Assembly (NCBI GenBank): GCA_963819655.1
Contig: CAWFXA010000003.1
Span: 224,001 to 288,000, forward strand
DNA length: 64,000 nucleotides
Origin: an uncultured Chloroflexia bacterium
GTDB lineage: Bacteria; Chloroflexota; Limnocylindria; Limnocylindrales; CSP1-4
Direction of reading: 5' to 3'
Position numbers and translations under genes: made by a program. Positions 23,753 to 29,506 of this stretch are shown here, piece by piece (the first letter of the stretch is position 1; every line of letters begins with the position of its first letter). The notes under the pieces were generated by a model. The model was not told the origin of the DNA and searched no databases. It saw only the letters and a list, made by a program, of their open reading frames with translations.

Positions 23753-23840
23753 GGGCGAGTGGCGGAATGGCAGACGCGCCGGCCTTAGGAGCCGGTGCCG
23801 CGTGAGCGGCGTAGAGGTTCGACCCCTCTCTCGCCTACCA
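23753..23840 (+). tRNA. tRNA-Leu (anticodon TAG)
   Basis: Acceptor stem GGGCGAG/CTCGCCT plus ACCA; D-loop GGAATGGCAGAC; anticodon loop CTTAGGA (TAG at 23786-23788); long variable arm; GGTTCGA T-loop; TAGACT -10 at 23739. Confidence 0.96.
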
Positions 23841-26121: not shown

Positions 26122-27432
<1,311 letters not shown>

Positions 27433-27502
27433 TCGGGGAGCGCCGCGTGACGGCGCCGCCTTTTGGGCAGCGCCCTCCGCGGGCCGTTGGCGGCGCCGAT
27501 TC

Positions 27503-27664
27503 TGATCCCACCAGACGTTTCGGGGCTCCGAGGGCCATATGCCCTCGGAGCACTCTGCCAGCCACGCTCGTGGCGGTCCATCCACGCACCGGATCACGCG
27601 GCCGACGACCGTTATGCGGCCCGCTGGCCTGGATCGTCTGCTCCCAGCAGAAATGTGGGAGTCA
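27503..27664. repeat. REP/MITE-like palindromic element between convergent clpX and ftsZ
   Basis: Perfect 11-bp hairpin gctccgagggc-catat-gccctcggagc (27525-27551). Near-inverted ends tgatcccac (27503) and gtgggagtca (27655-27664). Confidence 0.4.
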
Positions 27665-27869
27665 TGGGTCGGTGACGAGCGTGGGCGCGGGTCCGCCCCG
27701 CACTCGGGACGCGATCATCCGGTCGCGGCGCGAGCGCGAGGCTGCCGCTCCTGGAGGCGACGCGTCGACGCGTTCGGTCGGGCGCCACGGGAGGTCAGGG
27801 TACGCGAGGCCTTCCTCGCCGAGTCGCCCTCGAACCAGACGATCTCGACGCAAAGGCCTGACTGCCGCG

Positions 27870-29123
27870 TCAGCCGGTCCGAGACGTCGGCGGTCGATGC
27901 TTCCGCAGGAATGTTGGCAGTTCGAGGTTCTCGTCCTCGATCGGCGCACGCCGCTCCACCGCGGGTTGTTCGTCCTTGACGCCCGGACGCGCTGACGGCA
28001 CCTGAGCGTGCGGCGTGACGCGCTCGGCCTGCCTGCGGAGACGTGCGGTCAGCGTCGCCGGCGACACCGACTCCGCAGCACGATGGCCGTCGAGGCCCGT
28101 GGCGATCAGCGTGATCATGACCTCGCCCTCGGCGACGTCGCCGACGCTCGCCCCGAAGATCACGTTGGCGCGGCTGTCGGCCGTCGACCTGATCTCGTCG
28201 GCCGCCCGCCGGACCTCGCGCAACTTCAAGTCCGCGGGCCCGGACACATGGAACAGGATGCCGCGGGCGCCCTGGATGCTGGCCTCGAGGAGCGGGCTCG
28301 AGATGGCCTGCCGGGCGGCGTCCACCGCGCGGTCCTCGCCGGTCCCGCGACCCAGGCCGATCAGCGCCGGCCCCGCGTCGCGCATGATCGCGCGCACATC
28401 GGCGAAGTCGAGGTTGATGAGGCCGGGCGCCGTGAGCAGATCGACGATGCCCTGGACGGCACGGAGCAGCACGCCATCGACGACGCTGAATGCCTCGAGG
28501 GCGGATGCGTCCTCCTGGACGACCTCGCTGACCCGGTCGTTGGAGACCGTGATCAGGGCGTCCACCTCGGACGCCAGCCGCGCGGACGCCTCGTCGGCGA
28601 TCTCGCGACGCTGTGCGCCCTCGAAGTCGAAAGGCTTGGTGACGACCGCGATCGTCAGCGCGCCCTGCTCTCGCGCCTTGGCCGCCACGATCGGGGCGGC
28701 GCCCGAGCCGGTGCCCCCACCGAGGCCTGCCGTCACGAACACGAGATCGGCCGACGCGAGCGCCCTGCCGATCTTCTCGGCATCCTCCTCGGCCGACTTC
28801 CGGCCGACGTCCGGATCGCCGCCCGAGCCGAGCCCGTGGGTGATCGCGTCGCCGATCCTGATGCGAGTCGGCGCGAGGGACTGGCGGAGAGCCTGGGCGT
28901 CGGTGTTGCACACGACGAATTCGACGCCGGGGATCCCGGCATCGACCATCCGGTCGACGGCGTTGCCGCCGCCCCCGCCGACGCCCACGACGAGGATGCC
29001 GCGCGTCTCCGGGTGGCGTCCCCGTCGGAACAAGCCGGGGATCGAGACTGCGACGCGGGCGACCACAAGTCCGGCGAGGACGAGGATGACGAGCTGGACG
29101 AGGGTCTGGGCCGACTGGTCCAC
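27870..29123 (-). CDS. ftsZ: FtsZ with an N-terminal hydrophobic (putative transmembrane) extension
   Basis: VGVGGGGGNAV, NTDAQAL, GGGTGSG tubulin signature, TKPFDFEG, T7 loop INLDFAD and C-terminal core LELPTFLRK. GTG start lies 6 nt after TAGACT. Confidence 0.95.
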   Translation of the reverse strand: MDQSAQTLVQLVILVLAGLVVARVAVSIPGLFRRGRHPETRGILVVGVGGGGGNAVDRMVDAGIPGVEFVVCNTDAQALRQSLAPTRIRIGDAITHGLGSGGDPDVGRKSAEEDAEKIGRALASADLVFVTAGLGGGTGSGAAPIVAAKAREQGALTIAVVTKPFDFEGAQRREIADEASARLASEVDALITVSNDRVSEVVQEDASALEAFSVVDGVLLRAVQGIVDLLTAPGLINLDFADVRAIMRDAGPALIGLGRGTGEDRAVDAARQAISSPLLEASIQGARGILFHVSGPADLKLREVRRAADEIRSTADSRANVIFGASVGDVAEGEVMITLIATGLDGHRAAESVSPATLTARLRRQAERVTPHAQVPSARPGVKDEQPAVERRAPIEDENLELPTFLRKHRPPTSRTG

Positions 29124-29243
29124 GTCCCGAGTCTAGCCACACATCGCAAGTCCCAAGCACGACAGACGTCCTGCATCGCATGGTCCCTTCGTCGCATTCG
29201 ATGCCGTCCGGACCCGGCAAGAGCCCGTGCTACACTCGCCGCC

Positions 29244-29486
29244 GTCACGGCTGTGACAGGAGAGGAGTAGCGTCGGGACGGCCCCGAGCGAGCGTGGGAC
29301 GGTGGGAGCCGCGCGGTACGGGCCGACGCGAAAAGTCGCTCCCGAGCCATGACGGCTGACGCCCGATACCGCGTCGAGAGGGCACCGGGGATCTGCGCCG
29401 CGCGATGAGCGCGTTCGCACCGGGCGCCGAACCAGCAGGTGGTACCACGACCCGTTCGTCCGCTGGACGAGCGGGGTTTCTGTTTT
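29244..29486 (+). promoter_or_regulatory. valine T-box riboswitch with intrinsic terminator
   Basis: TGcTACACT -10 (29228-29236). Stem I has AGTA, an AGCGA bulge, a GGTGGGA distal loop, and GAA followed by specifier GTC (Val, 29335-29337). T-box GGTGGTACCACG at 29438-29449; terminator cccgttcgtcc-gct-ggacgagcggg-gtttctgtttt. Confidence 0.92.
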
Positions 29487-29506
29487 CGAAACCAACGAGG
29501 CATGCG

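Follow-up and report, generated by a model that had tools for sequence, protein, structure and literature searches.

The window analysed here is a 64,000-nt stretch of contig CAWFXA010000003.1 (positions 224,001 to 288,000 of the forward strand, assembly GCA_963819655.1) from an uncultured Chloroflexia bacterium of the Limnocylindrales, and it carries on its reverse strand an ftsZ gene whose product has its GTPase core preceded by an N-terminal extension with a predicted transmembrane (TM) helix; proteins of this layout are called TM-FtsZ below. The open reading frame (ORF) starts with GTG and encodes 417 aa, and its listed translation opens with MDQSAQTLVQLVILVLAGLVVARVAVSIPGLFRRGRHPETRGILVVGVGGGGGN and closes with ...NLELPTFLRKHRPPTSRTG. 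A sequence-only reading of the locus had noticed a stand-alone FtsZ with an N-terminal anchor, and this observation is confirmed. Its description of the protein as an otherwise intact FtsZ also stands: the GTP-binding signature GGGTGSG, the T7 loop INLDFAD and the C-terminal peptide LELPTFLRK are all present in the translation, and the Pfam and NCBIfam results agree. The Tubulin and FtsZ_C domains of Pfam are recognised with E-values of 3.6e-44 and 7.7e-29, respectively, and a score of 374.7 bits for the TIGR00065 equivalog, against a curated cut-off of 295.2, places the protein within FtsZ. The best solved relative is the Bacillus subtilis FtsZ (2vam), aligned over query residues 42-409 with 335.6 bits and including the C-terminal peptide of that protein, with which LELPTFLRK aligns; among the 49 matched PDB sequences, taken by their best stretches listed, none begins before query residue 30.

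In an alignment of 54 sequences, residues G47, G49, G50, G52, N73, T74, D75, Q77, G133, G135-G139 and G141 are invariant, as are N237, D239, F240, A241 and D242 of the T7 loop, and all nucleotide-binding and T7 residues are identical across the TM and the canonical FtsZ rows. The AlphaFold2 (AF2) model, built with this alignment as input, has a mean per-residue confidence (pLDDT) of 86.1. In its C-terminal linker the pLDDT falls below 50 at residues 349-354 and 369-399, and a short helix is modelled at 355-367. The C-terminal peptide follows the strict pattern L[ED][LV]P[TAS]FLR in 104 of the 116 homologues that carry the extension, occurs as a variant in nine more and is missing in three, one of which is a partial sequence; the most divergent TM-FtsZ subfamilies (P0126, P0127, P0130-P0133, P0144 and loci L157/L158) also lack it. 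The features of the gene are collected in Table 1.

Table 1. Features of the TM-ftsZ gene and its upstream region, in window coordinates.
Feature	Position	Strand	Basis
CDS, FtsZ paralogue with predicted TM anchor	27870..29123	-	ORF list, Pfam Tubulin and FtsZ_C, TIGR00065
Predicted single TM helix and hydrophobic span, codons 3-32	29028..29117	-	AF2, hydropathy, conservation
Basic linker RRGRHPETR, codons 33-41, predicted cytoplasmic	29001..29027	-	Conservation; low AF2 confidence
GTPase (Tubulin/FtsZ) domain with GGGTGSG, residues 43-202	28518..28997	-	Pfam, alignment
FtsZ C-terminal domain, residues 251-345; T7 loop N237-D242 just upstream	28089..28373	-	Pfam
Mostly disordered C-terminal linker, residues 346-399	27927..28088	-	AF2
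C-terminal peptide LELPTFLRK, residues 400-408, adaptor-binding motif	27900..27926	-	2vam alignment, homologues
-10-like hexamer TAGACT, putative leaderless promoter	29130..29135	-	6 nt ahead of GTG
Conserved upstream block CGAAGGGACC-N10-GGACG, about -69 to -45 from start	29167..29191	-	Seen by eye

The N-terminal extension counts 46 residues, 42 of them ahead of the first GTPase strand, and these are composed of MDQSAQT, the hydrophobic segment LVQLVILVLAGLVVARVAVSIPGLF and the basic stretch RRGRHPETRG. The hydrophobic run of about 25 residues and the basic cluster that had been described ahead of the first GTPase strand are both found in the translation, and AF2 models a helix at residues 3-27 (block pLDDT 85-96), with the linker falling below 50 at residues 34-37. 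Residues 8-26 have a Kyte-Doolittle hydropathy of 2.63, an Eisenberg mean hydrophobicity of 0.69 and a hydrophobic moment of 0.07, and four spans of the extension gave moments of 0.07-0.10 at mean hydrophobicities of 0.47-0.69. By these measures the segment is TM-like and not amphipathic. A short helix of high hydrophobic moment, as in OdinFtsZ1, was not found at moments of 0.07-0.10, and what hydropathy, AF2 and charges together describe is the arrangement of a bitopic protein, with one hydrophobic helix of at least about 20 residues and positive charges on the cytoplasmic side. The net charge is -1 ahead of the helix and +3 behind it, so that the positive-inside rule predicts an N-out/C-in topology, the orientation already proposed from sequence. 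The hydrophobic N-terminal stretch might also recall a cleavable signal peptide that exports the FtsZ domain, a reading we consider extremely improbable: the charges are reversed, with an acidic tip before and a +3 cluster after the hydrophobic stretch, the span of about 25 residues shows no small-x-small cleavage motif, and a GTPase polymer depends on cytoplasmic GTP. A search of the ESM Atlas with residues 1-60 gave a top score of 0.77, which is within the chance range.

An extension with the same layout is present in 116 of the 120 closest homologues (60-100% identity; the best of 7998 candidates scored) as well as in more distant family members, so the hydrophobic N-terminus is conserved; the four exceptions are two truncated starts (P0054 and P0056) and two canonical N-termini (P0101 and P0107). 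Among 89 distinct extensions, conservation reaches 91% at D2, 89% at A5, 87% at Q6, 97% at T7, 94% at Q10 and 99% at L16 and, further along, 81% at G18, 97% at L19, 94% at L20, 99% at R23, 91% at P29 and at G30 and 79% at W31, while in the linker R36 is conserved at 99% and P38, E39 and R41 at 100%. Judged from this alignment, conservation at many positions of the extension goes well past mere hydrophobicity. At the DNA level, six orthologous loci differ 215, 96 and 284 times at codon positions 1, 2 and 3, respectively, and the G+C content at third codon positions (GC3) of the extension is 0.89 in the window gene, whose codons here had rightly been called GC3-rich, and 0.74-0.96 across ten loci.

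These data bear directly on the possibility that the extension is an annotation artefact and that the protein, translated from a later start, is an ordinary soluble FtsZ paralogue. The window gene does have an in-frame GTG at codon 20 and a TTG at codon 31 (the first L of PGLF), and gene callers tend toward the longest ORF. Against it, neither of these downstream codons is conserved across the ten loci, while the GTG at codon 1 is the sole in-frame start common to all ten; in locus L012 there is, codon 1 aside, no in-frame start ahead of the G-box, and in seven of the ten loci the third codon upstream of codon 1 is an in-frame stop. Translation from the downstream GTG or TTG had been named beforehand as an outcome that would speak against a membrane-anchored FtsZ, and it finds no backing in these comparisons. 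The strong conservation of individual residues, the periodic pattern of substitution, a promoter-like hexamer at a fixed distance from codon 1 and RNA-library contigs that cover the extension region (both described below) likewise speak against a later start, which we regard as very improbable. Four lines of evidence, namely the homologues, the residue-level conservation, the DNA-level pattern and the shared start codon, argue that the extension is translated and conserved.

The start codon is preceded by the hexamer TAGACT, separated from the GTG by exactly 6 nt, as had been pointed out. The window holds a single match to TAGACT-N5-7-RTG where 0.26 would be expected, and because 23 of 100 shuffles reach one match, the single copy is weak evidence, its weight coming from conservation across loci. 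TA[GC]ACT-N6-GTG was found in 13 of 13 loci and TAGCGT-N6-ATG in the two loci of a divergent subfamily, so that a TANNNT hexamer stands exactly 6 nt ahead of the start codon in all 15 family loci examined. Genome-wide, 108 of 1678 long ORFs with high GC3 have TANNNT beginning at position -12 of their first start codon, compared with 40, 21 and 28 at -13, -14 and -15 and 1-11 at the remaining positions, and TAGACT is the commonest hexamer among the 108 (15 cases). This signal is not just the stop codon that bounds the ORF, because the T at -7 pairs with TAG at -12 (58 of 75) and seldom with TGA (7 of 40); enrichment at -12 extends to the non-stop triplets TAC and TAT (29 and 17, compared with 3-11 and 1-6 at other in-frame positions). 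Shine-Dalgarno-like motifs are present in 5 of the 108 ORFs of this class versus 466 of the 1678 overall. TANNNT-N6-start thus looks like the genome's general signature of leaderless genes, which appear to be common in it, and by its start-site architecture the TM-ftsZ gene of the window falls in this class, with a TANNNT ending 6 nt before the start and no Shine-Dalgarno sequence. A sigma-70 consensus scan of positions 27400-29500 returned no promoter; that scan needs two hexamers, and here there is a -10 hexamer only.

Further upstream, a block CGAAGGGACC-N9-10-GGACG is located about 45-70 nt ahead of the start in 12 of 13 loci with differing neighbours (including L005-L012 and L144-L146). 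The block travels with TM-ftsZ into different genomic contexts and may be an operator, an activator site or another regulator site or, should the transcript begin at a more distant point, part of a 5' untranslated region. As a genome-wide regulon motif it was discarded, since the genome holds just two exact matches, the second of them inside a coding frame.

Three genes of this genome (G000; 3.49 Mb, 91% complete) exceed the TIGR00065 cut-off. The canonical ftsZ (405.9 bits) encodes an ordinary short N-terminus and is found elsewhere on the same contig, where it immediately follows the sole true ftsA (421 bits) and precedes a YggS-like gene for a pyridoxal phosphate-dependent enzyme (Pfam Ala_racemase_N). 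The third gene is a second TM-ftsZ on another contig (C2:984479-985717; locus L003 1372-2667, +), which encodes 431 aa (TIGR00065 371.6 bits) with a hydrophobic helix and a basic linker, diverged in sequence from the window copy and equivalent in layout; it has a TAGACT-N6-GTG start and the C-terminal peptide EVPSFLRR, and its neighbours are a SulP transporter and small ORFs that match no Pfam family. The suggestion that the window gene is a paralogue, with ftsA to be sought elsewhere in the genome, is in agreement with these findings. SepF, ZipA and a true MinD gave no match in G000 and, because the genome is 91% complete, are reported as not found, not as absent. A canonical copy is present in all nine TM-bearing genomes checked, and the identity between TM-FtsZ and the canonical FtsZ of the same genome is 56-64%.

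Next to the window copy lie clpX (26122-27432, +), convergent with it, and valS (+), divergent from it. Because both are on the opposite strand, TM-ftsZ is monocistronic, and the absence of adjoining division or mur genes noted in the sequence-only reading holds. The position expected of a housekeeping orthologue, within a division and cell wall (dcw) cluster, was not found for this copy, flanked as it is by clpX and valS with the ftsA-linked copy elsewhere. The order tig-clpP-clpX/ftsZ/valS is common only to the closest relative, G200; the seven other contexts bear no relation to it, and across all nine we saw no conserved gene that could be a partner of TM-ftsZ.

The distribution of TM-FtsZ was scrutinized in a class sample of 301 genomes. 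Among the matches listed (169 weaker ones lie beyond them), those covering the extension came from nine genomes: G000, with two, seven others of its genus and one of another genus in the family; in addition, a partial match was found in G322, of the genus, and a match cut by a contig end in G270. Unpublished genomes count solely in the tallies of this class sample and of a phylum sample of 401 genomes, and every locus described here comes from other genomes. Five genomes with two matches were inspected. Two of family f4 (L157 in G063 and L158 in G051) encode a divergent TM-FtsZ that starts MDFL..., continues with a TM helix and RRARP..., has GGGTGSG and the T7 loop intact and no C-terminal peptide, and is read from an ATG after TAGCGT-N6; it also carries a Trp-rich segment, PAEWRPVWLRR, ahead of a basic tail. 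Two of family f3 (L155 in G064 and L156 in G050) have a second FtsZ paralogue without TM extension, and in the fifth, G256, the additional matches are short fragments on one small contig. When 1.84 billion proteins were searched, the 150 best representatives at 50% identity included 11 with a TM segment directly ahead of the G-box. The divergent TM-FtsZ P0130 found no close relative in the phylum sample, and three homologues, one of them 93% identical, bear the NCBI name Candidatus Limnocylindrales. A whole-protein search of genome contigs with generic FtsZ patterns returned 80 loci, all canonical, from many phyla and with matches starting at residues 34-58, and a metagenome scan with the alignment of the N-terminal extension gave three loci, its pattern requiring an ATG-encoded Met where these genes start with GTG. 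G450, where a match seemingly reached the N-terminus, was rejected as a TM-FtsZ bearer, the protein being the canonical ftsA-linked FtsZ without a TM segment. As observations apart from the anchor, P0121 (840 aa), P0125 (826 aa), P0151 (744 aa) and P0228 (731 aa) each contain two FtsZ-like stretches and appear by their sequences to be tandem FtsZ-FtsZ fusions, and the canonical ftsZ is split into two adjacent partial matches in the low-contig-count assemblies G001, G005 and G007, which suggests frameshifts or assembly errors.

A maximum-likelihood tree was computed from a 318-residue core, excluding the extension, with 66 rows (28 TM, 7 canonical from the same genomes, 27 named FtsZs and 4 others). 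In this tree, 27 of the 28 TM rows and P0101 form one clade with a support of 99/99, nested in a clade (100/98) that otherwise contains canonical FtsZs of the Limnocylindria type, with two further Limnocylindria sequences just outside; the remaining TM row, the long P0131, has no resolved placement. Constraining all TM rows and P0101 to one clade lowers the log-likelihood by 2.4 units, and the approximately unbiased test does not reject it (p-AU 0.355). Given this topology and test, a single gain of the anchor, on a duplicated copy of the Limnocylindria's own FtsZ, is probable. P0101 itself (395 aa, 70% identical) is a member of the TM clade with an ordinary short FtsZ N-terminus, and represents either a secondary loss of the anchor or a chimeric short contig.

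Several known systems share part of this design. Canonical FtsZ, be it 2vam or the genome's own ftsA-linked copy, has the same fold, domains, GTP-binding and T7 residues and disordered C-terminal linker as TM-FtsZ, and the C-terminal peptides are near-identical (...NLELPTFLRK in TM-FtsZ and ...TLDIPTFLRN in 2vam); unlike canonical FtsZ, TM-FtsZ has the N-terminal extension with its predicted TM helix, is encoded outside the division cluster as a monocistronic gene, evolves faster and is patchily distributed. ZipA, the bitopic FtsZ tether of the gammaproteobacteria, has an N-out topology. It is an integral membrane protein (PMC12583498), and ZipA taken together with FtsZ resembles TM-FtsZ in its overall build, with a single-pass anchor at the N-terminus joined by a linker to a division module in the cytoplasm; ZipA is, however, a separate protein that binds the C-terminal peptide of FtsZ, whereas in TM-FtsZ the anchor is fused to FtsZ. 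The engineered mts-FtsZ, with a membrane-targeting sequence on its N-terminal side, is reported to form 'inside-out Z rings' (Osawa and Erickson 2011, as described in the review PMC5797765). Its direct, adaptor-free tether on the N-terminal side is what is predicted for TM-FtsZ as well; it differs in being artificial, with an amphipathic peripheral helix, whereas TM-FtsZ is natural, has a conserved, predicted integral helix and keeps the C-terminal peptide. OdinFtsZ1 of the Odinarchaeota binds liposomes through an N-terminal amphipathic helix, and deletion of 13 residues abolishes binding (PMC12583498, which also cites membrane-targeting sequences of Mycoplasma FtsZ and chloroplast FtsZ1). It is a natural paralogue that binds the membrane by its own N-terminus, as TM-FtsZ is predicted to do, its sister paralogue using an adaptor; unlike the short peripheral helix of OdinFtsZ1, the helix of the bacterial (Chloroflexota) TM-FtsZ has about 25 residues, high hydrophobicity and a low moment and is followed by a positive cluster, the profile of a membrane-spanning anchor. 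Finally, a crenarchaeal FtsZ-like protein with N-terminal TM helices was described by Makarova and Koonin in 2010 (PMC2875224). It is likewise a member of the FtsZ superfamily fused to N-terminal TM helices, but a highly diverged archaeal singleton without a place in those authors' tree, whereas TM-FtsZ is a true bacterial FtsZ from a family of more than 100 sequence clusters. Full-text searches gave us no description of a bacterial FtsZ with an integral TM helix, a result that does not extend to supplementary copy-number tables. The word 'transmembrane' does not occur in the available text of PMC9871819 (on FtsZ/tubulin evolution) or of PMC13732431 (on FtsZ duplications), and in that of a Chloroflexota genome paper (PMC10608941) FtsZ figures as a marker profile only.

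Based on its conservation, paralogy, start codon and charge distribution, which all support a self-anchoring paralogue as first proposed, we consider it moderately probable that TM-FtsZ is an accessory FtsZ, itself a single-pass membrane protein, that polymerises on the membrane without an adaptor and adds to or modulates the attachment of the division ring. Its mRNA would most likely begin at or beside the GTG and be translated from codon 1. Residues ~3-32 would insert as one TM helix, N-out/C-in, leaving the conserved seven-residue tip MDxxAQT outside and the basic linker RRGRHPETR inside, and holding the intact core, catalytic by sequence, within ~11-15 residues of the inner face of the membrane. 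The flexible C-terminal linker of ~54 residues could let LELPTFLRK still engage FtsA. GTP-dependent polymerisation could then take place directly on the membrane, free of adaptors, with TM-FtsZ alone or mixed with the housekeeping FtsZ, and membrane attachment of the ring would thereby be added to or modulated. The highly conserved polar residues Q10 and R23 of the helix, together with the conservation of the outside tip, point to a specific helix contact, so that the TM helix may touch itself or another membrane protein and be more than a greasy anchor.

A number of observations weigh against this interpretation. Membrane insertion is itself a prediction from hydropathy, charge distribution and the AF2 helix, and R23 (99% conserved) and Q10 (94%) fall within the hydrophobic span, given which the helix may be shorter or interfacial. 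A start of the mRNA exactly at the GTG is opposed by RNA-library contigs that cross it upstream by 29 nt (29002-29152, 3 mismatches) and by 85 nt (29000-29208, 5 mismatches), as is not expected of a strictly leaderless mRNA. These are Logan contigs from rhizosphere metatranscriptomes, 97.6-98% identical and covering the extension, from which strand, DNA carry-over, 5' ends and expression level cannot be read; no RNA run held half of the sampled words. The gene is also dispensable, being present, within the class sample, in 9 of the genus's 16 genomes and in 1-2 of the family's other 75, and all 12 small (~1.1 Mb) genomes of the sister family f2 gave one FtsZ match each, as did all 16 f2 genomes in the draw of relatives. 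Moreover, divergence of the core is about 3-5 times faster in TM-FtsZ than in the canonical FtsZ: core identities are 84.9% for TM-FtsZ versus 95.3% for the canonical copy between G000 and G200, 85.2% versus 97.2% between G180 and G161, and within the genus, two near-identical genome pairs excluded, 67-85% versus 91-99%. Lastly, according to a review, FtsZ artificially tethered on the opposite, N-terminal side made rings outside liposomes and not inside them (PMC5797765), and by analogy TM-FtsZ may not be an ordinary constriction-ring anchor.

This last point concerns geometry. With an N-terminal tether, the filament would turn towards the membrane the face that the normal C-terminal tether turns away from it, which complicates the idea of the sequence-only reading that the protein acts as a tether for a canonical FtsZ; if the geometry holds, a plain anchor role is less obvious, and regulatory, non-division and 'inside-out' roles come into consideration. 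In an alternative that we judge unlikely, TM-FtsZ is a membrane-anchored regulator, an antagonist or an 'inside-out' filament that does not help the ring, its opposite filament face leading to opposite curvature or keeping canonical FtsZ and FtsA at a distance from the division site or in front of it. Besides the liposome rings, the linker of just ~11-15 residues between TM helix and core points this way, and so do the divergent subfamilies without a C-terminal peptide and a gene that is accessory, patchy and fast-evolving, as a modulator would be. On the other hand, all catalytic and T7 residues are retained, so that by its sequence the protein is not a capping or poison subunit, and most members retain the FtsA-binding peptide. 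A natural 'inside-out' FtsZ, a reading that we likewise judge unlikely, would bend the membrane the other way, into outward bulges or by wrapping inward tubes, and a cell would then hold two FtsZ systems of opposite polarity. Equally doubtful is the further step that such filaments would lie far nearer the bilayer than FtsA-tethered ones, with the Q10/R23 face and the tip coupling them to a partner in the membrane or the cell wall.

Less probable again is a membrane-bound tubulin-like cytoskeleton independent of division, serving vesicles, protrusions or the architecture of the cell pole. The gene stands alone outside the division clusters with neighbours that vary between close relatives, up to two TM copies occur per genome, the conservation of the outside tip and of the polar TM residues hints at a dedicated partner, and a published survey connects other FtsZ-like families with membrane remodelling (PMC2875224). 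Such a role is hard to reconcile with the branching of TM-FtsZ within the class's housekeeping FtsZ lineage and its score above the TIGR00065 equivalog cut-off, with the retained division-adaptor peptide, and with the lack of a conserved partner gene in the contexts compared.

What is new at this locus is a natural family of FtsZ paralogues with a predicted built-in N-terminal TM anchor, FtsZ itself being already known. The public annotation of these proteins is plainly 'cell division protein FtsZ', and the anchor is therefore invisible in the databases. The mode of attachment and the filament face are central to the long debate on whether the bending of membranes is the work of FtsZ itself or whether FtsZ does no more than guide wall synthesis. 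Until now the N-terminal tether had been studied with an artificial construct, and the natural cases of direct binding known were all of peripheral amphipathic helices. TM-FtsZs add a natural family of more than 100 sequence clusters with a predicted integral anchor, intact GTPase residues and a mostly intact adaptor peptide, existing beside a normal FtsA-FtsZ pair, and lend themselves to reconstitution work on the polarity and the length of the tether and on filaments of mixed composition. They also indicate that FtsZ paralogues in an abundant uncultured lineage of soil and freshwater have diversified in their mode of membrane attachment.

Elsewhere in the window, a tRNA gene (23753-23837, +) lies just upstream of the tig-clpP-clpX cluster, and Rfam at its gathering threshold recognised nothing else over the whole window. 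Upstream of valS, positions 29244-29352 (+) show a weak match to a T-box leader (31.4 bits, E-value 2.4e-05; gathering score 93), and a terminator-like hairpin followed by a T-run is found at 29451-29485 (+), within the listed valS ORF. From this match and the hairpin inside the ORF, the start of valS is probably close to 29507 (MTDTAEPE...), after an attenuator of the T-box type.

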